In this document: one piece after another, positions 2,244-35,498 of the stretch
Position numbering within the stretch: the first letter of the stretch is position 1
Layout: every line of letters starts with the position of its first letter
DNA from: Microgenomates group bacterium GW2011_GWF2_47_9
GTDB lineage: Bacteria > Patescibacteriota > Microgenomatia > UBA1400 > UBA12108
Assembly: GCA_001003385.1 (NCBI GenBank)
Contig: LCPA01000002.1
Coordinates: 1 to 35,498, forward strand
DNA: 35,498 bases
Direction of reading: 5' to 3'
Program-made: the position numbers and the translations under genes
Notes under the pieces: model-generated
Told to the model about the DNA's origin: nothing
Seen by the model: only the letters and a program-made list of their open reading frames with translations
Databases searched by the model: none

Positions 2244-3065
2244 CTATACAAGAGGTGGGGAGGAGACTGTTAGAACTTCGTTTTCTGGTAGGCGAAAAAG
2301 AGGTTCGCCAAGACGTTTTTGATCTAGATAATGAGCAATAAAGCCAACACTTCGAGAAAGGACAAAAACAGCATTAAAGAATTCTGTTTCGAGTAGGCCT
2401 GAAATCTCGGCTGAGCCGAGATGCTCTTCTTCTGATAAAAGATCTAGAAGTACGGCGGCGATACAACCGTCGACATTGAGAATTAGATTGGGTTTTTTGG
2501 CGGTGGTTTGAGAGGAGACCTGACGAGCAAAGTCTAGGTAGGGATGGGCGATATCCTCGACAACTTTTGTGAGGATTTCTACGCGGGGGTCTGGCAAAGT
2601 AACGGAGTATTTGCGATGTCCAATACCGGGGATATAAGCTTTGCGTTTGGCGTAATCTTCAACAACATCAACCGGAGAAGTGCCAGCCTCGACAGAATGA
2701 AACCAAACTGAGGCCGCGCCGTTAATTGCTCCACCGAAGCGCGGGCCGATTGTTAGGAGTCCTGAAACCAGGGATGAGACCAAGTCTTTGCCGGCACGAG
2801 CAGTAATAATCGTGTTGACGGCGCCTGAAACGTAGGGGCCATGATCGACAAGAAGACGTAGGGTGAGGTCGAGAGCTTTTTCGAGGCGCGCTGACTTTAA
2901 TGGCCGACCTAACCAAAGCGAACCAGCGAGCCAAGCTAGACTTTGAGTGGAAGCTGTGGTTGTAAGGTCGGAGCCTAGAATCGTGGCGATGCCATTGACA
3001 TCACCACTAATTGTAGAGGTAAGTAGGGAGGGTTTGCGATCGTTAAGTTCACTTGCCTGTTTCAT
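2244..3065 (-). CDS. ccl: Citrate-synthase-like / citryl-CoA-lyase module of ATP-citrate lyase, as a stand-alone 273-aa protein
   Basis: Near-colinear with the C-terminal domain of eukaryotic ACLY/AclA as I recall it: LLVDHGPYVSGAVNTIITARAGKDLVSSLVSGLLTIGPRFGG, IPGIGHRKYS, KKPNLILNVDG, FVLSRSVGFIAHYLDQKRL. The ATG is at 3063-3065. Confidence 0.8.
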   Translation of the reverse strand: MKQASELNDRKPSLLTSTISGDVNGIATILGSDLTTTASTQSLAWLAGSLWLGRPLKSARLEKALDLTLRLLVDHGPYVSGAVNTIITARAGKDLVSSLVSGLLTIGPRFGGAINGAASVWFHSVEAGTSPVDVVEDYAKRKAYIPGIGHRKYSVTLPDPRVEILTKVVEDIAHPYLDFARQVSSQTTAKKPNLILNVDGCIAAVLLDLLSEEEHLGSAEISGLLETEFFNAVFVLSRSVGFIAHYLDQKRLGEPLFRLPENEVLTVSSPPLV

Positions 3066-3083
3066 AGACCAAGGATAGCATAT

Positions 3084-4031
3084 TTAAAGCTGACCAACTT
3101 CAGCAACAAACGCACTAAAAGAGTCGGTAACGGTAAAGCCAGCCTCGCGAAGTGCTTTTCTTTTGGACAAAGCTGAGTCTTTGACACTTGCGGCTTTGGC
3201 TTTGGCATGGCCAAATTGAGGAGATTCGGGGAAAAGGTCGGCGACGGTGCCTGCAATGTGAGCGATAACTTTTTTAGTAAATTTGCCCTCCTCTTTGAGC
3301 TTGACTAGTTCGTACTCGTCTAGCCCCCCGAGCTCGCCGTAGTAGAGTACTGCGGTTGTCGCCGGATCGGCTTCTGCAAGTAAAAAGGCTTGGGAAGGAG
3401 AGAGAATCGGAAAGCGATCTCCACCAAAGGAGAGAGCAAATGAAAGGTGGTGACCAGCAAGAGCGGCGACACTAATGAGCTCATTGGTCATCCCGCCTGA
3501 AGCAGATAAGACGGCAATGTGACCTGGCTTGATGATGCCTGATTCTTCGACTTGAAGGGGGGTGATTCCGCCAATTGGGCCTAACTTGAGAGCGGTGGGG
3601 ACAAGCAGACCAACAGAGGCCGGACCGAGGATTAGGGGAGAGTAGCGTGATCCCTCTACGGTGCGCAGGATTGAGTGGGCGTGAAGTTCGGGAACATTCT
3701 CAGCAAAAAGGACACCACCAGCGTAGTTAAAATCGAGAAGTTCGAGAGTAGAGGGCAAAGTACGACGACCAGAGCTAATGTTGAAGAACCAATTTGTAGA
3801 ATCGCTTGGAAGTGGTACGCTTTTTACAGAAATAAAGGTGGGAAACAAAACTTCCTCTTTACCAAAGAAGAATTTGGTATACCCTCTCTTGCCAGTCACA
3901 ACGGCAATAAGGCTAGGCTGGCTTTTCCCACTCAAATAATCAAAATCTAGTATTGATTGAATGAGAGCGGGGTGGTTACCAATGACGACAATTTTGTTCT
4001 TTCTGGCCCGGATTTGTTCGATGTTAATCAT
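3084..4031 (-). CDS. aclA: ATP-citrate lyase alpha-type CoA-binding/CoA-ligase module with phosphohistidine loop, 315 aa
   Basis: ILDFDY motif, GPASVG, SASGGMTNEL, GGDRFP, and the loop QFGHAKAKA followed by KALREAGFTV. This matches ACLY QFGHAGA...KNQALKEAGVFV from memory. The start ATG overlaps the aclB stop (ATGA at 4028-4031). Confidence 0.8.
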   Translation of the reverse strand: MINIEQIRARKNKIVVIGNHPALIQSILDFDYLSGKSQPSLIAVVTGKRGYTKFFFGKEEVLFPTFISVKSVPLPSDSTNWFFNISSGRRTLPSTLELLDFNYAGGVLFAENVPELHAHSILRTVEGSRYSPLILGPASVGLLVPTALKLGPIGGITPLQVEESGIIKPGHIAVLSASGGMTNELISVAALAGHHLSFALSFGGDRFPILSPSQAFLLAEADPATTAVLYYGELGGLDEYELVKLKEEGKFTKKVIAHIAGTVADLFPESPQFGHAKAKAASVKDSALSKRKALREAGFTVTDSFSAFVAEVGQL

Positions 4032-5215
4032 GATTCAATATATTTGATAGCTTGACTAATAACGTTGGTTAAAACAACATCTCGACCAGACACTTCCCCA
4101 AGTAGGGAAGATTTGGCAAGGTAGGCTTTGATCATTGTAAGTCCTTTTTGTTCGTTGGGACCACCACGGCGAACAAAGACTTTGACGCCCAAACGAACAA
4201 GTTCTTTCTCGTGCTCTTTGAGAGCCCGGATAATACCGGAGAAGGTTTTGGCAACGTCCGTGAAATTGGCAACGCCCCCGGCAATTATAAGAACTTTGCG
4301 GGGAGCTGTAGAGCGAATTAGTTCGGTAAGGACAAGAGAGGTATAGGCGTAAGTATCATCGTCACTCGGGGCGCCAGAATACTCACCGTAGTTGCCAAGC
4401 TCTTTGCCATAACCAAGATCAGTAGCCTCGTCAGCCAAGACGAGCGAGGCTCCTCCACCTGACAAGAGTAGCCAAATTGAGCCGTTTTGGTTTAGCGAGC
4501 GAAATTTGAGAGAGGCGGGGGTAGTGGCGTCAAGAAGGGCAATTTGCTGTTCGACTGGCTGATTTCTGCGTTCGGTAACGGGAGTGAGCGAAATGGGGAA
4601 GCCGGGGAGCGCGAGGCCTGCACTATCTATTTCGCCTGCCGCGTCGAGGAAAATGAGTTTATCTCCAATGATTAAGACTGGATTACATTCGAGAAAGACG
4701 AGATGATGCTCTATCAGCGCGTTAATTAGCTTGTCGAGGATAGGATGAAGCATAGGAGGGAGCCAAGAGGGAAAAATGTATTTCCCCTCACGACTTGTTA
4801 GGAGAGCCGATCTAACGCTATCCCAAGTTGATTCGACAGAGACACCACCCTTCTCACCCCAAGAAAGATGCCATCCCTCTCTCACTAATTCGAGGGCGAG
4901 GTATTTTTCATCTTGTTCTTGATGAGGAAGATATCCTTCGACAATGAAGTTGGACCAGCCAAGCTTGCGCCAAGCTTGGGCGGCCTCGTAAACAGAGGCG
5001 ACTGTAAGATTGAGCTTGACCAAGCCCACCACCCCACGCTTTTTGACTCCCTGGTCAACCTTGATGACGAGAGAGTCTAAGTTGTTGGAACGAGCGAAGG
5101 AGGTGAGTTCGAGAAGGGTGGAGTCGGTGGACAGACGAAAAACGCTTGCTTGGGAAGGAAAGATTTTCGCAAGGATTGCTTTAACGTCTGACTCTAAAAG
5201 TTTAACCCTAGCCAT
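4028..5215 (-). CDS. aclB: ATP-citrate lyase beta-type ATP-grasp/citrate-binding subunit, 395 aa
   Basis: Strong ACLY N-terminal-like blocks: KVDQGVKKRG..GLVKLNLT, FLECNPV, SGGGASLVLADEATDLGYGKELGNYGEYSGAPSDDDTYAY, IAGGVANFTDVAKTFSGIIRAL, VFVRRGGPNEQKGL. Confidence 0.85.
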   Translation of the reverse strand: MARVKLLESDVKAILAKIFPSQASVFRLSTDSTLLELTSFARSNNLDSLVIKVDQGVKKRGVVGLVKLNLTVASVYEAAQAWRKLGWSNFIVEGYLPHQEQDEKYLALELVREGWHLSWGEKGGVSVESTWDSVRSALLTSREGKYIFPSWLPPMLHPILDKLINALIEHHLVFLECNPVLIIGDKLIFLDAAGEIDSAGLALPGFPISLTPVTERRNQPVEQQIALLDATTPASLKFRSLNQNGSIWLLLSGGGASLVLADEATDLGYGKELGNYGEYSGAPSDDDTYAYTSLVLTELIRSTAPRKVLIIAGGVANFTDVAKTFSGIIRALKEHEKELVRLGVKVFVRRGGPNEQKGLTMIKAYLAKSSLLGEVSGRDVVLTNVISQAIKYIES

Positions 5216-5833: not shown

Positions 5834-6598
5834 TTAGTTTTCGGGGGGTAATGGTGATTCGGAGGGAGTAGCTTCAACTTTTTTAGTAAAACGCTCGGAG
5901 AGGCGGGCGATGAGCGACTGGATAATCCGAATAGAGTTGTAGATTGTGGAAAATACCAGGGAAGTAATAATAAAGACTTTCTTGCCGGCAGGCATGGCCA
6001 AAAAAACTAGATAAGAACCAACGGGTAAAACAAATTGGAGCATGGTAACGTCGCGACGAGAGACTGGGAAGGGAGAGCGAATGGCTAAGAGGAGTTCGAC
6101 GATAAAGATCATGGCAGACTGGATGAGGTTGAGGGTGGCGTTGGTATGGCTTAGGTCATATTTTCCTAGAAATAGGAGATTGACGCTATTAATCTGAGGC
6201 ATAAAGGGATAGAGCAAATGAAAATCCTCGCCTTCGAGGCCGGTTGTAAAAATGCGGTACAGCATGACAATGATAATGAGCTGAATGATGAGGTTGGCTG
6301 ATGTTGCAAGAACCGTCCTTTTGTTGGCGCGCATGACTTTGCGCACCTCTTGTTTGGCGAGAATGGGATCATGAGAGTAGCGAGCTTTAAGTTCTTCGAC
6401 GACTCCGGCGATTTTGCGCTTTTCTTCCTCTTTCCTTTCACTTGCGATGGTGAGGGGGAAGGTAAACAGTCGAACGACGAGGGAAAAGATGATTACTGCA
6501 ATACCCATATCCAGAAGTTCTGGAGAAAGGCGACCGAGAAGCCAATAGATTCCAACTAAAATATTGAAGAAGGGCTGATAGATGTAAGTTTCAAACAT
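5834..6598 (-). CDS. YidC/Oxa1-family membrane insertase, divergent second paralog, 254 aa
   Basis: The N-terminus IYQPFFNILVGIYWLL and the TM1 arginine (VVRLFTFPL) parallel the canonical YidC at 20927-21691 (VYQPILNTLIWLY, LVRGLLIPFTLP), and it has several TM helices. I trimmed the track start (6625, non-ATG) to the ATG at 6598, which removes the overlap with the upstream gene. Confidence 0.65.
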   Translation of the reverse strand: MFETYIYQPFFNILVGIYWLLGRLSPELLDMGIAVIIFSLVVRLFTFPLTIASERKEEEKRKIAGVVEELKARYSHDPILAKQEVRKVMRANKRTVLATSANLIIQLIIIVMLYRIFTTGLEGEDFHLLYPFMPQINSVNLLFLGKYDLSHTNATLNLIQSAMIFIVELLLAIRSPFPVSRRDVTMLQFVLPVGSYLVFLAMPAGKKVFIITSLVFSTIYNSIRIIQSLIARLSERFTKKVEATPSESPLPPEN

Positions 6599-6604
6599 AG
6601 AGGC

Positions 6605-6610
6605 ATTATA
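6605..6610 (-). promoter_or_regulatory. -10 box TATAAT, 6 nt upstream of the YidC-paralog ATG (candidate leaderless start)
   Basis: The minus strand reads TATAAT-gcctct-ATG. The TAA stop of the upstream gene (6606-6608) lies inside the hexamer. No Shine-Dalgarno sequence. Confidence 0.5.
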
Positions 6611-7073
6611 CCTTGCTAGACACAATTTGGGTGGTAGAGACTGAGGGATTCCAGGTATGAACGACCACTAGTTCACAGCCATATTTTTTGCAGAGAAGAC
6701 GTTTGTTGTCTAAAAATGAAGTGTGGCTGGAGACGGCGTAATAATGAGGGCGGACGGAGGAGAGGAGAGAGTTGTAGGCGGCCTGATTATCAAAGTCGTC
6801 GGGGAGAAGAATCACATATTGAGCATATTCCCTTACTTTTTGAGCGCGGACTACTTGGATCTCAATCGGCCTTCCCTCCCCCTTCTGCGCCTTTGCCCGA
6901 GCGTCGCTTTCTACGCCAACAATAAGAGTGTCGCCTGCGCGGGCGGCTTTTTTCAAAAAATTGATGTGCTCGATATGGAGGAGATCAAAAAAACCGGTGG
7001 CTAAGACCAACCTTCGAGAGCGAGAATGGAGAGAATGGCTAATGCTTTTGATGGTGTCGATTGTGTAGAACAT
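6606..7073 (-). CDS. Cytidylyltransferase-like (HxGH-type nucleotidyltransferase fold) protein, 155 aa
   Basis: LATGFFDLLHIEHINFLKKAA resembles the GxFDxxHxGH signature of the TagD/RfaE-II/FAD-synthetase-type nucleotidyltransferases. The size fits a single domain. Confidence 0.55.
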   Translation of the reverse strand: MFYTIDTIKSISHSLHSRSRRLVLATGFFDLLHIEHINFLKKAARAGDTLIVGVESDARAKAQKGEGRPIEIQVVRAQKVREYAQYVILLPDDFDNQAAYNSLLSSVRPHYYAVSSHTSFLDNKRLLCKKYGCELVVVHTWNPSVSTTQIVSSKV

Positions 7074-20570: not shown

Positions 20571-20955
20571 CCTGGCTCAAGAGGACATGGACTTGACGAC
20601 GTTCGGTTGAGGAAAGAGGGGGCATGGCATGTGCTGACCCCGTCTCGAGGACTTTGGCGGAAATTCTGGCAACCATCTCTTGTAATGTTTTGAGGCGATT
20701 CTCGCGATAACCTCCTACATCAAAGAGGATGTGCCGAGAAAGATTGCTTTTATTAACCATGAGAGAGATGAGAAGTTGGATCGAGTCTAGGGTGGAGGCA
20801 TAGCGGCCAATGTAGATGCCAGCGTCCTCGGCCGGAAGTGCGACCGAGATCGTAAGTAGCTCACCATCATCTTCAAAAGTGATTAGCTCTGTATTGAGGT
20901 TAAGATAGTTTAGGAATTGGATGATATTATCTTGTAGCTGTTTTTCGATTGACAT
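20500..20955 (-). CDS. jag: Jag/KhpB-type RNA-binding protein (KH + R3H), 151 aa
   Basis: C-terminal R3H motif (STERRQVHVLL) and the conserved position downstream of yidC. ATG at 20955 with a GGGAGG Shine-Dalgarno sequence (20960-20965) chosen over the track start at 20991. Confidence 0.75.
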   Translation of the reverse strand: MSIEKQLQDNIIQFLNYLNLNTELITFEDDGELLTISVALPAEDAGIYIGRYASTLDSIQLLISLMVNKSNLSRHILFDVGGYRENRLKTLQEMVARISAKVLETGSAHAMPPLSSTERRQVHVLLSQDETFTTYSEGEGGERRLFISKKN

Positions 20956-21691
20956 GATTCCTCCCAATTTTGATACCAAGTTTGCGTGCATATTTTACTA
21001 GCCCCCCTGGGCCTGAAATGACTAGTTGTTGGACGAGAGAAAAGGCAGTAGTGATTACCCAGTACAAGGAAAGGCCTGACGGAAATTGCAGGGCGAATAC
21101 CACGGTCATAATGGGCATGAGGAAAACCATTTGTTGTTGCATAGAGGTGGCCATTTCGGCAACATCTTCTTTTTGGGCTTTAGTGCCTGGCCGCTTCTCT
21201 GGTTCGTTTTCAACAGCGGGAAGAATTGCCATTGAAGTAAAGAGCTGGAGAATGCCGGCGAGAACAGGGAGAATGTAGGTTCCGTCTTTTTCTTTGAGGT
21301 TCCAAAAGAGAAAGTTGGTGTTGGTTAATACTGATTCGGCGCCGTTTAGAGAATTCATAAAAACCTGATATAGCGCGATAAGCACAATAAATTGAGCGAT
21401 ATATGGGAGACAGCCACCGGCGGGGTTCAGTTTGTGGGTCTTATAAAACTCTAGCTGTTTGGTTTGAAAAACTTTGGGATCATGGTCGTATTTTTTTTTG
21501 AGGGCGTCAAGCTGGGGTTTGAGGGCACTCATTTTTTTGGCCGACTTTAGGCTCGGCAAAGTAAAGGGAATAAGAAGGCCTCTAACCAGAAGAGTAAGAA
21601 TGATTGTCGCGAAGCCGAGATTATTGCCGGTGATCTGATAAAGCCAGATTAGGGTATTTAGAATGGGTTGATAGACAAGTGTGTGATACAT
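20927..21691 (-). CDS. yidC: Membrane protein insertase YidC (short Gram-positive/CPR type), 254 aa
   Basis: VYQPILN, LLVRGLLIPFTLP, HKLNPAGGCLPYIAQFIVLIALY, LSLYWVITTAFSLVQQ. It occupies the canonical position in rpmH-rnpA-yidD-yidC-jag. Confidence 0.9.
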   Translation of the reverse strand: MYHTLVYQPILNTLIWLYQITGNNLGFATIILTLLVRGLLIPFTLPSLKSAKKMSALKPQLDALKKKYDHDPKVFQTKQLEFYKTHKLNPAGGCLPYIAQFIVLIALYQVFMNSLNGAESVLTNTNFLFWNLKEKDGTYILPVLAGILQLFTSMAILPAVENEPEKRPGTKAQKEDVAEMATSMQQQMVFLMPIMTVVFALQFPSGLSLYWVITTAFSLVQQLVISGPGGLVKYARKLGIKIGRNHVNRKTATR

Positions 21692-22493: not shown

Positions 22494-23849
22494 ATGGACA
22501 ACCAGGATTTATGGAAGGCGGTATTGAGCGAGTTGGAGCTGTCGATTTCGGGAGTAAATTACTCTACTTGGATCAAACCTTTAAATTTGATTGCGATTGA
22601 GGACAAGGGAGAGGGAAAAAGCTTAACCATAATCCAATGCCCCTCGCCATACCACAAACACATGGTGGAACAGAGATACCATGCTCAGATACAGAAAAGC
22701 TTGGAGAGAATTACGGAACAAAAAACTGAGGTGGTCTTTGAAGTGGGGAAAAGGAAGTCAAGCCCGGAAGCAGAGTTGTTTACTCCCCTTTTTTCCCAGA
22801 CCGGAGTAGGGAATACAAAAAGTGGCGCACATAATTTGAACCCAAGACTAACGTTTGAGACATATGTGGTTGGCTCTAGCAATAACTTTGCACATGCGGC
22901 GGCACAAGGGGTGGTGAAGAGTCCCGGCAAAAAATATAATCCTCTCTTTATATACGGAGGGGTGGGACTTGGGAAAACACACCTCATGCATGCTGTGGGA
23001 CACGAGTTATTTAAATTACATCCAGATTGGAATATTCTCTATATTTCTGCTGAGACTTTTGCTAATGATCTTATTTCTAGCTTGCAGAGCAAGAAGACAA
23101 CAACATTTAAAAAAAGGTATCGATCCTGCGATCTTTTAATGGTTGATGATATCCAGTTTATTTCGGGGAAAGAGTTTACTCAAGAGGAGTTTTTTCATAC
23201 TTTTAATGAGTTGCATATGAACGAAAGACAGATAATTTTATCCTCTGATCGACCACCACAGGAAATGGCGAAAATCGAAGAGCGGTTGTCCTCTAGGTTT
23301 ATGGGTGGACTTACCGTCGATATCCAACCTCCAGATTTTGAGATGCGAGTCGCAATCTTGACCCAAAAGGCCAAGGAAATGGGTCTTTCAATCCCACCGG
23401 AATCAATTTCCTTAGTCGCTGAGAAGACGGCGACCAATATAAGGGAGCTTGAGGGGGTGTTCCGAAAGGTTGTGGCTGTTGCTGATCAGAGAGGCGGGGA
23501 AATTAGTGGAGAGCTTGTGAGAGAGTTTTTCGGAGTAGAGCAGGAAAGAAGAACCCAACGGATAAGACCAAGTCTAGTCATCAATAAAACAGCACAGTAT
23601 TTTGAATACAAGACGGGAGACCTAACGGGAAAGAGCCGAAAAGCTCCCATCACGAATGCAAGGCATATAGCGATGTATTTGATAAAAACTGAGCTTGACA
23701 TACCATACGAGCAGATCGGAGAACTTTTCGGGGGGAGGGACCACACGACAGCCATGCACGGAGTTCTAAAAGTGACAGAAGGAATCAAAACGGAAGCAGA
23801 GGTTGCCAAACACATCGCAGACATTAAGCACATGGTTTTTAGTCAATAG
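22494..23849 (+). CDS. dnaA: Chromosomal replication initiator DnaA, 451 aa
   Basis: Walker A GGVGLGKTHLMHA, Walker B LLMVDDIQF, and the C-terminal DNA-binding helix (KSRKAPITNARHIAMYL...GGRDHTTAMHG). GAGGGG Shine-Dalgarno sequence upstream. Confidence 0.97.
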   Translation: MDNQDLWKAVLSELELSISGVNYSTWIKPLNLIAIEDKGEGKSLTIIQCPSPYHKHMVEQRYHAQIQKSLERITEQKTEVVFEVGKRKSSPEAELFTPLFSQTGVGNTKSGAHNLNPRLTFETYVVGSSNNFAHAAAQGVVKSPGKKYNPLFIYGGVGLGKTHLMHAVGHELFKLHPDWNILYISAETFANDLISSLQSKKTTTFKKRYRSCDLLMVDDIQFISGKEFTQEEFFHTFNELHMNERQIILSSDRPPQEMAKIEERLSSRFMGGLTVDIQPPDFEMRVAILTQKAKEMGLSIPPESISLVAEKTATNIRELEGVFRKVVAVADQRGGEISGELVREFFGVEQERRTQRIRPSLVINKTAQYFEYKTGDLTGKSRKAPITNARHIAMYLIKTELDIPYEQIGELFGGRDHTTAMHGVLKVTEGIKTEAEVAKHIADIKHMVFSQ

Positions 23850-24126
23850 GGGTTGCCTTTATCCACTACTAGTGTTGATAACTATGGGGAAAATAGACGG
23901 GGATCGAATAATTATTTGTGGATAACAAGACAAAAAATGGTTATACACATAAAGGGAAAAGTTATCCACCAAGTTATCAACTAAGAAACGTGGGTTATAT
24001 GCTAAGTTTTCTACCGGTCTACCCAGAGAATAATTCACTAATCCACCATATATACTAATACTGCTACTAAAGGAAACTTAAATAAATAATTATGTATAAT
24101 GTGCACAGTCAGAAAAAGGAGAAGAA
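23850..24126. other. Chromosomal replication origin (oriC) between dnaA and dnaN
   Basis: DnaA boxes: TTATCCACT (23859-23867), perfect TGTGGATAA (23917-23925), TTATACACA (23941-23949), TTATCCACC (23962-23970) and TAATCCACC (24039-24047). These are followed by a 3-nt periodic CTA/ATA run (24052-24069), an AT-rich stretch (24070-24100), and the dnaN -10 box TATAAT (24095-24100). Confidence 0.8.
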
Positions 24127-25224
24127 ATGAAAATCGAAGTATTGCAGGAAGAACTTATTAAGGGAATAGGGGTTGTGGGGAGGGTTGTCTCGAACCGAGC
24201 TCAACTGGCAGTACTTGGGAATATCTTGATTGAAGCACAAAAGACTGGACTTAGACTTTCGGGGACCGATCTTCAGATAGGGATGAGTATTGGTTTGCCA
24301 GCGAAAGTAAGTGAGACTGGAAGAATCACAGTTCCTGCAAAGGTTTTACAAGAATTTGTCGGGTCGTTAGCGCCGGGAAGGCTTACCTTGGAACTAAAGC
24401 AAGATACGCTAATTGTTGAGGGGGGGAGTTATCGAGGGAAGTTTCAGACGATATCTGCGGAAGAATTCCCAGCTATTCCAGTTTTGCCTGATAATAAGGC
24501 AAAAATCATAGTGAGACAGAGCGAGTTTGCCGAGATGTCGACAAAGGTGATATTTGCCGCCGCAAAGGATAGTTTGAGGCCAGTATTGACGGGAATTTTG
24601 CTTGAACTGTCTAAGACTAGTTTGAGGATGGTCGCTACAGATGGATTTCGATTGTCAGTTGGCAAAATTAAGGCACAGGGAGCGGACTCTTTGAGGAGTG
24701 TTTTGATACCGATGCAGGCAATTGCGGAAGTAGCCAGATTTGAAGGGGAAGAGGAGTTACAAATAGTGAGCGTAGAGGAATCTAATCAAGTGATTTTCCA
24801 GGCGGGGGAGAGCCTGTTGGTAAGTCAGGTAATTGACGGGAATTATCCGGATTATAATAAAATAATTCCAAAGGAGTCTAAGAGTGAGGTTGTGGTTAAC
24901 CGGGAGGAGCTTTTGCAGGCTGTAAGGGTGGCTCATATTTTTGCCAGGGAAAATTCGAACATGATGAAATGGGACGTTAATGAGAAGGAGATAGTAATTA
25001 TTGCAGAATCGCCAGAAAGAGGCGATTCGGAAGCGAGAGTCCCTGCCAAAATTGACGGAGAGGGAGGGAAGATTATTTTTAATGCGAAGTTTCTTCTTGA
25101 TTTTTTGAGTGTAGCAAAGGGGAGCGAGATAACATTTGGGATGGGGGAGCCACTTGACGCCGGGGTATTTCGTTCGACCGGCGACGAGGGACTTTTGTAT
25201 ATCGTAATGCCAATTAATGCCTAG
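24127..25224 (+). CDS. dnaN: DNA polymerase III beta sliding clamp, 365 aa
   Basis: Typical DnaN length, position after dnaA, and sequence (LRPVLTGILLE...LRMVATDGFRLS...VIDGNYPDYNKIIP). AAGGAG Shine-Dalgarno sequence upstream. Confidence 0.95.
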   Translation: MKIEVLQEELIKGIGVVGRVVSNRAQLAVLGNILIEAQKTGLRLSGTDLQIGMSIGLPAKVSETGRITVPAKVLQEFVGSLAPGRLTLELKQDTLIVEGGSYRGKFQTISAEEFPAIPVLPDNKAKIIVRQSEFAEMSTKVIFAAAKDSLRPVLTGILLELSKTSLRMVATDGFRLSVGKIKAQGADSLRSVLIPMQAIAEVARFEGEEELQIVSVEESNQVIFQAGESLLVSQVIDGNYPDYNKIIPKESKSEVVVNREELLQAVRVAHIFARENSNMMKWDVNEKEIVIIAESPERGDSEARVPAKIDGEGGKIIFNAKFLLDFLSVAKGSEITFGMGEPLDAGVFRSTGDEGLLYIVMPINA

Positions 25225-32589: not shown

Positions 32590-35498
32590 ATGGGAAACAC
32601 TGAACGTCAACCTAAGCCGGGTAGTGGAGAAGTGGGGGAGAATGCAGGGGCACAGAGAACGCCTACAATTGATAAGTCGGTGGGGGGAGTAATCGATTTT
32701 TTAAGACAGATGAAACTGTTGGTTTTGATGAGGAATCAAGATCCAAATTCGGGTAATTTTGAGAAACTTCGCGAAGTTGAAGAGGGGTTACAGGATAAAG
32801 ATCCTAAAGTTCGTACGAAGTCCCAGACGTTGGCGGATCAATTAATTCAGAATTTTGATTTAGTTTCGGGAGAGGCGGGGCGAGCGAGTTTACAAAGAGT
32901 GGTTGAGACGGCGTATCCTGATGCGGGGAAGAGGCCGGGACAAGCACTTGGTTTGGCAAGCGAGATAGATAAAAAGATGGCCGTGATAACCAGAAAATTT
33001 GAACAGGGGCAAGCAGTAGAGGCGAAGGAGAGCGAGGAGATATTTGAGAGGCTTAGCAAGTTTAGAGATGAGGTTGGGTTTAGAGGGATGACGCAAGAGG
33101 GGATGCAGATTTATGAGGATACGATACTGACGGTAGTCGCGGCAAGACAAGTAGGGAAGAATGTTGAGAATCCCTTGGTTTATGAATCTCCGCTTGAAGC
33201 GAAAAAAGAATTTTTTGCGGAGGGGTCGTCTCCTCAAGCTGATGATAAGAGACTGAAAATAAGGAGGGCTAAGCCAGAGCAAAAACCACAACTAGAAGAA
33301 AAGCTGGAGAGAATGAAAAAGAACGTAAGAGAAGTGGTAATTGAGAAAAAACGGAAAATGGGGGGGCAGGAGGCAATTGGAGCGCTTGAGGACATTTCTG
33401 ACCTTAAAGCAAGACTAAGGAGCCTTGTTGGCGATCAGCATAAGGAGACGCTTGAAACTTTGCAGACACTATCGGCGGCGGAGGCACACTTTAGAAGAAT
33501 ATTAAGCGATAATATTGAGGCGAAGCTTGGGGGTGGCGCGGGAGTAGAGCAGGGATCCATATATGCCGCACTTGGGGATGTTTTACACGAGGCAAGAGGA
33601 GGAAAGTATGCGGGAGGAAAGGCAAGATATCATTTCGAGGATAAGTTTGACAAGGTAGTAGAGACGGTTGAGCGGCGAGCTAAGAGTTATGAGGCACAGA
33701 TGTCTTCTCGCTTCGGGAGAGCGGCGACACTAGGTAGCGATGAGTATAAGGGGATGTCACAAGTAGAGCGGATGATTGCAACAGCGCAGGCTCAGCAGGA
33801 AGCCGCGTTTCATGAGAAGGTGAACGATATATATCCTGTACTAAGTGAGATGGGGATTGATCCAACATTTCCGGACGGGACTTTCTTTACCAAATTACAG
33901 AAACAGACAGTTGAGGAGAGGATACAGACGATTGACGAGGTGATAAGACAAGGGAGGGAGCGAGGAGTATCTGAGTCGAAGTTGACGATGGGGGCGAAGT
34001 TTTTACACTCGATTGCACGGGCAGAAAAAGACAAAAATGGGGTAATGGTGGATTTTCTCGATGTAAAAGAAAGGTTACGAGGGTATGTAAAGAAGCACCA
34101 GTACGGGCGATATATTCGGGAGATGAAGTCTTATGTAAGTAGAGTTGGATTGCGCGAATCGTCGGCTGACTTTCAGTTTGCAATTATGTTACGCGACGCG
34201 AAAGATGTGATATCGATTTTGGAGACCGATGTGGCGGAGGAGTTTGACGCCTGGCAAGGTTCGTTGTTTATTCCTTCGTTTAAGTCGGTGGATCCGGAGA
34301 CTTTCCGCTCGATGTTTGAGAGAGTGTGGAATGCAAGTAATCTTGACCATGTGTTAAACCCGGCTTACGCAAATGCGGCCGGGATGCTTGTGGAGATGCC
34401 TGACGGGACGAAGAAAATGATGTCGACTGCGGTGTTTTACCAACTGCTTCAACGAGGAGATAACGCAACCAGATTTTTGAATGCGGCGGTTGATACGGTT
34501 GACAGTACTTCATTCCGGATTTGGATTGATTACCTTTATGGTAAGGGAGCGACGTGGGAAGGAGACTTGGCGACGGGGAGAGTGGTTGACGCAAATGGGA
34601 GAGAACTCGCAAAAATGAATAGCTTGATTAAGGTGCAGGGTTTTGATGTAAAAAGTAAAAAGCTAGACGGGGATGACCAGGATACGTTTACGCTAGGAGA
34701 GCTTTTGGAACAAGGACAATGGATGCATCGATATGCAGAGAACTTTTTTATGTATTCGGGGGAGGCGGGTAAGCATATGCGTCACTATCCGAAGGAGATG
34801 ATGGAGAACGCGAACAAGTGGGTGTTTGCGCAAGACCAGATGTTTGAAGGCTACTCAGGACACTATGGCAAGTATGCTCAGCCATTTTGGCAGATCGCAA
34901 AACTGGGGCATTTACTTCGTGAAATTAGGGGTTACAAAGACACGGGTATATTTCAGGAGGCAATGGTTTTGGAGCTAAGAGGAGCGGGGATCGAGAGCGA
35001 CCGTGCCATAGCTTTTTCGAAAATGTGGACGGACAAATTGAAACAAAAAATCACGGTAGAGGGGAAGACGTTTGATGTGGGATTGTTGTCAATTGAGGAA
35101 ATAAGGTTGATCGGAAACGAGTGGGGGGGAGCGGAAGAGGCGTGGCTACATGCGAAAGATTATTTAACGGCACACAATATGCCAGAGGGAATGATTAAGG
35201 ACCAGGCATATATAAGGAGGGTGTTGGGGAAAAAGAACCGAGGAGAGAAGATGAGTGAGGAGGAGGAAAACTGGGCGAAACAGGCGGAGGAATTTTTTGC
35301 GTTATGCAAAAGCTTGAAGTGGTCAGATGTGAAGAAAAAGGATTATGGAGGATTGTCGGAGCGAGAGCTTGCCAGCTCGATGACGGAGAGAGAGCTAGCG
35401 GTTTTTGCAAAGCGGAAGAATACAATTTTTGGCGGGGAGTGGAAGCCGCGGAATATGACTGAGTTTGTGCAAGGATTTGAGTATGCGGCGGTAATGGA
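32590..35498 (+). CDS. Large uncharacterised protein, at least 969 aa, 3' end beyond the window (absent from the supplied ORF track)
   Basis: I translated this frame codon by codon from the ATG at 32590 to 35498 and found no in-frame stop. An in-frame TGA at 32569-32571 closes the frame upstream. No + strand ORF is listed in this 2.9 kb, and the six listed minus-strand ORFs there are low-complexity shadows. The product is charged, helical-looking and lacks a TM helix, and I recognise no domain. Confidence 0.8.
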   Translation, partial: MGNTERQPKPGSGEVGENAGAQRTPTIDKSVGGVIDFLRQMKLLVLMRNQDPNSGNFEKLREVEEGLQDKDPKVRTKSQTLADQLIQNFDLVSGEAGRASLQRVVETAYPDAGKRPGQALGLASEIDKKMAVITRKFEQGQAVEAKESEEIFERLSKFRDEVGFRGMTQEGMQIYEDTILTVVAARQVGKNVENPLVYESPLEAKKEFFAEGSSPQADDKRLKIRRAKPEQKPQLEEKLERMKKNVREVVIEKKRKMGGQEAIGALEDISDLKARLRSLVGDQHKETLETLQTLSAAEAHFRRILSDNIEAKLGGGAGVEQGSIYAALGDVLHEARGGKYAGGKARYHFEDKFDKVVETVERRAKSYEAQMSSRFGRAATLGSDEYKGMSQVERMIATAQAQQEAAFHEKVNDIYPVLSEMGIDPTFPDGTFFTKLQKQTVEERIQTIDEVIRQGRERGVSESKLTMGAKFLHSIARAEKDKNGVMVDFLDVKERLRGYVKKHQYGRYIREMKSYVSRVGLRESSADFQFAIMLRDAKDVISILETDVAEEFDAWQGSLFIPSFKSVDPETFRSMFERVWNASNLDHVLNPAYANAAGMLVEMPDGTKKMMSTAVFYQLLQRGDNATRFLNAAVDTVDSTSFRIWIDYLYGKGATWEGDLATGRVVDANGRELAKMNSLIKVQGFDVKSKKLDGDDQDTFTLGELLEQGQWMHRYAENFFMYSGEAGKHMRHYPKEMMENANKWVFAQDQMFEGYSGHYGKYAQPFWQIAKLGHLLREIRGYKDTGIFQEAMVLELRGAGIESDRAIAFSKMWTDKLKQKITVEGKTFDVGLLSIEEIRLIGNEWGGAEEAWLHAKDYLTAHNMPEGMIKDQAYIRRVLGKKNRGEKMSEEEENWAKQAEEFFALCKSLKWSDVKKKDYGGLSERELASSMTERELAVFAKRKNTIFGGEWKPRNMTEFVQGFEYAAVM

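Follow-up and report, generated by a model that had tools for sequence, protein, structure and literature searches.

What is the giant open reading frame (ORF) that runs off the end of contig LCPA01000002.1 of Microgenomates group bacterium GW2011_GWF2_47_9, and why does it lie among genes resembling those of a type IV secretion system (T4SS)? The window, by which we mean the whole stretch of 35,498 nucleotides that was analysed, ends inside this ORF, and BIG is used here as a working name for the product of the large gene. An earlier reading of the DNA (hereafter, the sequence-only reading) had described it as a large orphan next to a T4SS-like operon. Our comparisons indicated that BIG is, by its genomic context, an obligate resident of this T4SS-like locus. 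The type of T4SS is already known; what is new here is an undescribed, near-universal giant component in one class.

Within the window the frame is free of stops for 969 sense codons (32590–35498, plus strand) up to the window edge, which confirmed the translation given earlier. It was absent from the ORF list because it is unterminated at the window end, as had been supposed, and the list held three minus-strand ORFs of 98–133 aa for this region. The true end was obtained from the metagenomic contig L001 (ENA ERZ28564009 scaffold_1019, 65.7 kb), which has 16 differences from the window in 12,909 overlapping bases (99.9% identity) and carries the full gene of 1,211 codons. On the 5′ side, the BIG frame is closed by a TAA at 32545–32547, and the first in-frame ATG, GTG or TTG that follows it is the ATG at 32590. 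The gene is placed as follows:

BIG: positions 32590–35498, plus strand, the first 969 of 1,211 codons; the last 242 codons lie outside the window

Several lines of evidence indicated that the BIG frame is a real, selectively constrained gene and an ORF of the expressed type. The chance of a frame staying open for this long was ~4e-29 given the local base composition. The earlier impression that the stretch is coding-like was upheld by the codon usage, whose correlation with that of the other window genes was r = 0.50 in the BIG frame and at most 0.26 in the other five frames, and by a ratio of nonsynonymous to synonymous substitution rates (dN/dS) of 0.046. In the relatives that were looked at the frame was kept, at the same length, down to 22% identity, and a confident AlphaFold model of BIG was obtained. 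The competing explanation, in which the long frame would be spurious and the short minus-strand ORFs genuine, has in its favour that three such ORFs (98–133 aa) are present in the region, and the sequence-only reading had left room for it. However, the number and position of the antisense ORFs changed from homologue to homologue, and they are therefore interpreted as shadows of the real gene. With their positions not conserved they were ruled out as the true genes, and this explanation, already refuted by the evidence above, retains next to no probability.

The dN/dS value was derived from loci L018 and L020, which share ~91% DNA identity and in which BIG had a dS of 0.475 and a dN of 0.022. 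The neighbours of BIG in the same two loci had dN/dS values of 0.14–0.19, above that of BIG itself. By these rates BIG is under purifying selection, which is strong in the short term. Between the window and L001, BIG had seven synonymous and four non-synonymous changes. Ten of the 16 window-L001 differences (six synonymous and four non-synonymous) fell within 940 bp (32799–33736), a segment that encodes the variable N-terminal part of BIG, and their density there was ~20x that of the other 10 kb compared.

When 1.84 billion representative proteins were scanned exhaustively with HMMER, 29 relatives of BIG were identified, 15 of them at E<1e-30. The full-length relatives are 1,146–1,304 aa long with identities from 60% to ~23%, and the one named public member is a “hypothetical protein” (KKU89218.1) of a Microgenomates group bacterium. 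Based on these matches, BIG founds an unannotated protein family.

The tie to T4SS-like genes proposed by the sequence-only reading was supported by the context of the relatives. Eight family members, with 60% to 22% identity to BIG by BLASTP, were placed on contigs. In every such locus with flanking sequence, BIG lay between a ~950-aa minus-strand gene and the gene of a ~500–530-aa polytopic protein (hereafter, the VirB6-position protein), and the other T4SS genes were in the same order in all of these flanked loci. The identical context was found in 9/9 contig-lookup loci with flanks and in nine further GTDB loci, i.e., the 18/18 members with context were at the same position in the locus. 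One NCBI genome, GCA_052034705.1, had the full dnaA-to-sigma arrangement.

The same position was occupied well beyond the family. A GTDB scan via the VirB6-position protein yielded 80 loci, mostly titled Microgenomates group, Woesebacteria, Gottesmanbacteria, Pacebacteria, Curtissbacteria or Patescibacteria group, and the family hidden Markov model (HMM) matched nine of the 80, each time in a convergent ORF directly after the VirB6-position gene. We then counted as slot proteins any ORFs of at least 700 aa that started within 450 nt of the VirB6-position gene, in the 69 loci with at least 3.5 kb of sequence beyond that gene. A convergent slot ORF was present in 65 of these 69 loci (~94%), with a median length of 1,204 aa and an interquartile range of 1,107–1,250 aa. 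The slot proteins formed about 30 BLAST groups, most of them too diverged to align. Iterating the HMM search across the positional ORFs left the family at 18 loci, and direct profile-profile comparison of the BIG family with seven other positional groups was not significant. Positional groups 3, 5 and 6 were linked to each other at 94–98.5% probability by profile-profile comparison, and a profile merged from these three matched the BIG family (hhalign 82.5%, E 1e-5, 113 collinear columns). Because of these profile-profile links, a single old and highly diverged protein lineage probably occupies the slot, at any rate among the Woesebacteria-like part of the tree. The orphan status assigned earlier was consequently not borne out, as BIG has both a family and positional counterparts across the Microgenomates group.

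The C-terminal motif [HLF]PLFDDPxW, used in an initial GTDB scan, had given no confirmed loci and was too narrow, because the second scan, via the neighbouring membrane protein, found family members. Many of the GTDB metagenome-assembled genomes with this Patescibacterial locus (including those of L013, L014, L017 and L018) bear the title “uncultured Pseudomonadales” or “Gammaproteobacteria”, and isolated records bear “TM6”, “Bacteroidales” or “Limisphaerales”. All of these titles are probably wrong public labels.

Analyses of the BIG sequence identified no signal peptide and 31% charged residues. No transmembrane segment was found at threshold, in agreement with the sequence-only reading: the top 19-residue hydropathy was 1.08, and this maximum is the C-terminal helix, which lies outside the window. 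Because it has neither a signal peptide nor a transmembrane segment, BIG is, by prediction, a soluble cytoplasmic protein. Residues ~1–30 are poorly conserved and of low model confidence, and are followed by a conserved amphipathic helix; residues ~30–480 are variable and all-helical, and from ~500 on there is a conserved alpha/beta region. Across 23 sequences, conservation was low over residues 1–480 and higher from ~505 to the end, with E523, D527, R535, K743, Y755, Y782, D979, Y987, G651, G1081 and P1183 invariant. The aromatic block singled out in the earlier reading falls within one of the regions conserved in the family. The C-terminus consists of a basic stretch, then hPLFDDPxW, then an amphipathic helix, with a Gly/His tail in some members.

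Neither sequence nor structure searches connected BIG to a known domain. Scans of Pfam, NCBIfam, PHROGs, PADLOC and the PDB sequences, using the single protein, the 23 members or the profile, gave nothing recurrent, and the earlier statement that no motif could be recognised was thereby extended from BIG to its family. Walker A, HExxH and CxxC motifs and an invariant His or Cys were not conserved among the 23 family members, with the Walker A-like string [AG]x4GK[ST] occurring in two of the 23 at unrelated positions. Searching with tblastn against plasmids and phages gave no match to BIG, and self-BLAST detected no internal sequence repeat. A word-indexed homology search with the protein and with the family alignment returned the query alone, and was probably swamped by E/K-rich words.

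The single-sequence AlphaFold model of the 969 aa was unusable (predicted local distance difference test, pLDDT, 39.6). With the 29-sequence alignment the mean pLDDT was 82.2 and the predicted template modelling score (pTM) 0.61, and pLDDT exceeded 90 over most of model residues 580–1080. The N-terminal half of this model is helical and the C-terminal half mixed alpha/beta and well folded. Foldseek searches with it returned nothing below E = 0.9 in PDB or below E = 0.02 in BFVD, and template modelling scores (TM-scores) were <0.2; the best E values, 0.96 in PDB and 0.026 in BFVD, with TM-scores <0.1, were both considered noise. The top PDB matches were alpha-solenoids (importins, beta-catenin and LGN), and these were weak (E 1–4, TM-score <0.2). 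The remote homology searches suggested by the sequence-only reading found relatives and distant slot groups and no known domain or fold.

The neighbours of BIG in the window, read away from it, are:

Hyd: positions 29561–32545, minus strand, a 994-aa protein with a ~670-aa N-terminal domain without matches, two transmembrane helices (670–745) and a C-terminal CHAP domain
Bitopic protein: positions 28908–29564, minus strand, with an Ig-like (Big_5) domain
PrgI (VirB3-like): positions 27830–28822, minus strand, two transmembrane helices and a CarboxypepD_reg-like domain; PF12666 at gathering score
TrsD-like protein: positions 27178–27813, minus strand, resembling the N-terminal part of VirB4; NF041427 at 8e-6
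VirB4-type ATPase: positions 25221–27146, minus strand, TraG P-loop, AAA_10 and CagE_TrbE_VirB; PF19044 at 2e-28 and PF12846 at 9e-14
dnaA and dnaN: positions 22494–25224, plus strand, with dnaA at 22494–23849

Hyd has no signal peptide, and its CHAP domain is a peptidoglycan hydrolase domain. In relatives of Hyd the catalytic domain is M23 or undetectable, with a constant architecture and length (934–997 aa). We also considered whether BIG is a paralogue of the N-terminal domain of the hydrolase and rejected this, as no similarity was found. Beyond BIG, the minus strand of L001 encodes a 500-aa polytopic protein, an 827-aa exported protein and seven PF18895 VirB2-like pilins. The 500-aa protein, which is the VirB6-position protein, has a signal peptide and about six transmembrane helices, and had no match in Pfam, NCBIfam or PDB; its profile searched against PDB also gave no VirB6, and the label is consequently one of topology and position alone. 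The order across the locus is the pilin array, the ~830–980-aa exported protein and the VirB6-position protein, then BIG facing them, and on its other side, divergent from it, the hydrolase, Big_5 protein, PrgI, TrsD and VirB4. BIG is the sole opposite-strand gene within the T4SS locus. The sequence-only reading had it divergent from the T4SS-like operon, which was correct and incomplete: BIG is embedded, with T4SS-type genes on both sides, and is convergent with a second operon, that of the pilins and VirB6-position protein.

The pilins (L001 17678–20157) are seven divergent VirB2-like paralogues in tandem. Divergent from them is a gene for an extracytoplasmic function (ECF)-type sigma factor (L001 20194–20950, plus strand), whose end is overlapped by a small ORF. 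L002 and L005 have the same pilin/ECF sigma arrangement, which makes the sigma factor a candidate for regulating the locus. At the other end of that operon (L001 13634–13640), 1 nt separates the stop codon of BIG from that of the convergent membrane-protein gene, and the spacing is 3–70 nt in most loci. Stop codons this close leave no room for a terminator, so the transcripts should overlap and antisense interference would be possible.

Upstream of BIG, two features were identified:

Promoter-like site of BIG: positions 32555–32582, plus strand, CTAACA, 16 nt, TGgTATAAT
Divergent intergenic region between BIG and Hyd: positions 32546–32589, 44 bp

The extended -10 box of BIG, TGGTATAAT, is at 32574–32582 and ends 7 nt before the ATG. 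A TGnTAnAAT box 6–7 nt before an in-frame ATG was present in 15/15 family loci with upstream sequence, and the same box was found in 9/9 loci of the three nearest positional groups. This short distance between the -10 box and the ATG suggests that the BIG mRNA is leaderless. The 44-bp gap reported in the sequence-only reading is correct if Hyd begins with the ATG at 32545, which is its called start on L001. Within the gap the plus-strand TATAAT shares 2 bp with a -10-like TAGAAT on the minus strand, and because of these back-to-back -10 boxes the co-regulation of BIG and Hyd through the region, as proposed earlier, is plausible.

The proteins of the locus differ widely in their conservation between lineages. 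Their identities to L001 were:

VirB4: 81–88%, other lineages
TrsD: 71–78%
VirB6-position protein: 50–63%
PrgI: 47–54%
Hyd: 22–32%
~830-aa exported protein: 25–30%
BIG: 58% in L002, 20–28% in the rest of the family, undetectable outside the family

BIG is therefore tightly constrained within a lineage, yet it is the most divergent protein of the locus between lineages. Between L001 and L005, VirB4 (82%) and TrsD (77%), the core genes at window 25221–27813 and L005 2529–5370, were far more alike than DnaN (46%). The DnaN value indicates that the organisms are only distantly related and that, measured against a housekeeping protein, conservation of the T4SS core is unusually high, which points to extreme constraint on the core genes or to their lateral exchange. 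In the close pair L018 and L020, the VirB6-position gene (L018 9818–11398, L020 546–2120) had a dN of 0.216, compared to 0.022 in BIG, and a dS >1. That this gene is far more diverged than the adjacent BIG suggests allele replacement by recombination within the locus. A mirror-tree analysis for an interaction partner of BIG gave r = 0.41 with Hyd and r = 0.43 with the VirB6-position protein, and hence no preferred partner.

Slot proteins of different groups had some C-terminal features in common. The hydrophobic maximum was within ~76 aa of the C-terminus in 17 of 66 slot proteins (3.6 expected), and several of them (e.g., L066, L035 and L071) have an unmistakable C-terminal transmembrane helix, with hydropathy up to 2.2. 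Their last ten residues were enriched in His (3.6x), Lys (2.2x) and Gly (1.8x). A His in the last six residues was found in 27/66 slot proteins, from 11 groups, compared to 57/434 other proteins of the same loci (Fisher p = 4e-7, with the kinship of the sequences ignored). The tail of the window's own BIG is not positively charged. An acidic-aromatic C-terminal motif (FDDPxW-like) had been considered as common to the groups and was rejected, as it is specific to the BIG family.

For comparison with known systems we used Southlakia epibionticum SEML1_0006–0019 (Wang et al. 2023, PMC10633639) and the survey of Quinonero-Coronel et al. 2025 (PMC12102498). Patescibacterial T4SS loci have been reported in the dnaA region (PMC12102498) and described as having no relaxase or coupling protein (PMC12102498, PMC10633639). 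The locus studied here shares with them VirB4, a TrsD-like protein, PrgI/VirB3, peptidoglycan hydrolases and a VirB2-like pilin array (PMC10633639, PMC12102498), as well as the adjacency to dnaA/dnaN, and no match to a relaxase or type IV coupling protein (T4CP) family was found among the locus genes scanned. By gene content it is a Patescibacterial (MPF-FATA-derived) T4SS, its defining components having been found, with the pilins on L001 outside the window. A soluble antisense protein of ~1,200 aa is not described in PMC12102498, PMC10633639 or PMC12857230, and BIG had no match to the T4SS profiles in Pfam and NCBIfam. Published component lists, having been built from known T4SS profiles, lack a conserved member.

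In S. epibionticum, genes 0005–0013 are all on one strand, unlike the BIG locus, and 0011 (998 aa) and 0013 (1,088 aa) are membrane proteins with helical extensions, unlike the soluble BIG. VirB6 is hard to detect in Microgenomatia (PMC12102498). Extended VirB6 proteins, such as those of Rickettsiales and the ARM-repeat-like SEML1_0011/0013, are the nearest parallel in the literature and resemble BIG in having a large, mostly helical, hydrophilic module at the VirB6 position (PMC12857230); BIG differs in being a separate opposite-strand gene without a transmembrane core, and it lacks the polytopic core of five or more helices found in VirB6. No sequence similarity or significant structural similarity of BIG to ARM/HEAT proteins was demonstrated. 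The likeness to a T4CP (VirD4/TcpA), as a cytoplasmic, membrane-tethered channel partner, would be a functional analogy only, since BIG has no P-loop, no FtsK/TraG-type Pfam match and no N-terminal transmembrane helices, and any anchor would be C-terminal. BIG likewise has no relaxase Pfam match and no conserved His that would place it among the relaxases.

T4SS substrates with C-terminal signals include Agrobacterium VirE2 and VirF, which have charged tails, and the Xanthomonas X-Tfe proteins with their XVIPCD domain. BIG is comparable to these in being cytoplasmic, with no Sec signal, a variable body and C-terminal features shared among its counterparts. It is unlike them in its fixed locus position, uniform length, strong purifying selection and the transmembrane helix of some counterparts, and the BIG family had no similarity to XVIPCD or any effector domain in Pfam.

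The T4SS was shown to be essential for epibiotic growth in the one genetically tractable Patescibacterium (PMC10633639), and its cargo, and how it works with no coupling protein or relaxase, are unexplained (PMC12102498, PMC12857230). BIG is a concrete candidate for the cytoplasmic partner or the cargo of this machine. Between the two roles offered by the sequence-only reading, a giant substrate or effector and a cytoplasmic scaffold, our results tip the balance modestly towards a machine-associated subunit. Our favoured reading, held tentatively and at a little short of an even chance, is that BIG is a membrane-proximal cytoplasmic accessory subunit of a T4SS that lacks a coupling protein. 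BIG would remain cytoplasmic, tethered to the membrane through its C-terminal helix, and form a large platform or adaptor accessory to the inner-membrane T4SS complex, where it may recruit or gate the cargo of the relaxase-less, coupling-protein-less machine or scaffold its assembly. Its own leaderless promoter would allow BIG to be made independently of the two machine operons, and its transcription would run head-on into one of them, with hardly any 3′ spacer between. The fixed single copy, uniform length, purifying selection and transmembrane-type tail anchors in counterparts are consistent with such a subunit, and that the length is uniform even among non-alignable groups fits a structural role. 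Other observations weigh against it. BIG is the fastest-diverging protein of the locus, with 21% identity at most, or none detected, in loci whose VirB4 is 81–88%, TrsD 71–78% and VirB6-position protein 50–63% identical, which is odd for a subunit that would have to dock on partners as conserved as these. Stoichiometric subunits are usually co-transcribed with their machine, whereas BIG is antisense. The C-terminal helix in the window's family is amphipathic (hydropathy ~1.1) and not a transmembrane anchor, the mirror-tree analysis identified no preferred partner, and the annotation of the Saccharibacterial T4SS locus includes no comparable soluble protein (PMC10633639, supplement). In addition, the K/H/G-rich C-terminus found in slot proteins of unrelated sequence might just as well signal export, as it would if BIG were a dedicated T4SS substrate, recognised by its C-terminus and exported to the surface or to the host bacterium as an effector or translocon. 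We consider export of this kind, the main rival reading, possible and on balance rather unlikely. BIG diverges at about the rate of the exported Hyd, the ~830-aa protein and the Big_5 protein, with the ATPase core at 81–88%, and has its own promoter and opposite orientation; the extreme C-terminus of the slot proteins is enriched in H/K/G, and T4SS signals are typically C-terminal and charged. In the published view, moreover, the Patescibacterial T4SS probably exports proteins (PMC10633639). However, selection on BIG is purifying (dN/dS 0.046) and not diversifying, the tail of the window's BIG carries no positive charge, and the strongly hydrophobic, transmembrane-like terminal helix of several counterparts is more readily explained as an anchor than as an export signal. 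Repertoires of effectors usually differ in gene number, size and location, whereas each locus here holds a single such gene, fixed in position, whose length stays uniform among non-alignable groups.

Two further proposals were weighed against the accessory subunit. The absence of a relaxase or T4CP family match among the locus genes scanned, together with eight polar residues (E523, D527, R535, K743, Y755, Y782, D979 and Y987) that are invariant in the 23 sequences, would suit an unconventional enzyme that processes cargo, whether relaxase-like, nucleic-acid-modifying or protein-modifying, and replaces the relaxase/coupling module. We regard this as highly improbable given that none of His, Cys, HExxH, CxxC and Walker A is conserved, that no Pfam match recurs among the 23 members and that Foldseek gave no PDB enzyme fold at E<0.9. 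It is also very unlikely that BIG is a lineage-specific cytoplasmic protein unrelated to secretion (e.g., a cytoskeletal or dnaA-region protein) that was trapped in the cluster. The locus does adjoin dnaA and dnaN, the orientation of BIG is opposite to that of all T4SS genes and no sequence link connects it to any T4SS component, but the slot stays filled (65/69 loci) beyond the point at which the protein itself can be recognised, and none of the 18 members with known context lies outside such a locus. A bolder version of the link to secretion is that BIG and its counterparts are the functional heart of the T4SS of the Microgenomates group, as its single dedicated translocated protein, delivered to the host bacterium, or as a non-ATPase replacement of the coupling protein; this seems to us doubtful, though worth stating. 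If it is true, almost every such locus would encode a new fold, and cargo handling in these ultra-small episymbionts would be explained.

Some features of the window outside the T4SS locus were also observed. From 2000 to 35498 the GC skew was strongly positive (0.1–0.39) on both sides of dnaA, with no change of sign, and third codon positions favoured G in genes on the plus strand and C in those on the minus strand. This would place the replication origin elsewhere than at dnaA, unless the strand bias has a different cause. There are two YidC/60KD_IMP paralogues within 15 kb (5834–6625 and 20927–21691, minus strand), one of them in an rnpA-yidC-jag group beside dnaA. Three adjacent minus-strand genes (2244–5215) encode a citrate synthase C-terminal domain, a CoA ligase and Citrate_bind plus ATP-grasp domains; they look like an ATP-citrate lyase/citryl-CoA set, which would be unexpected in a metabolically reduced lineage.

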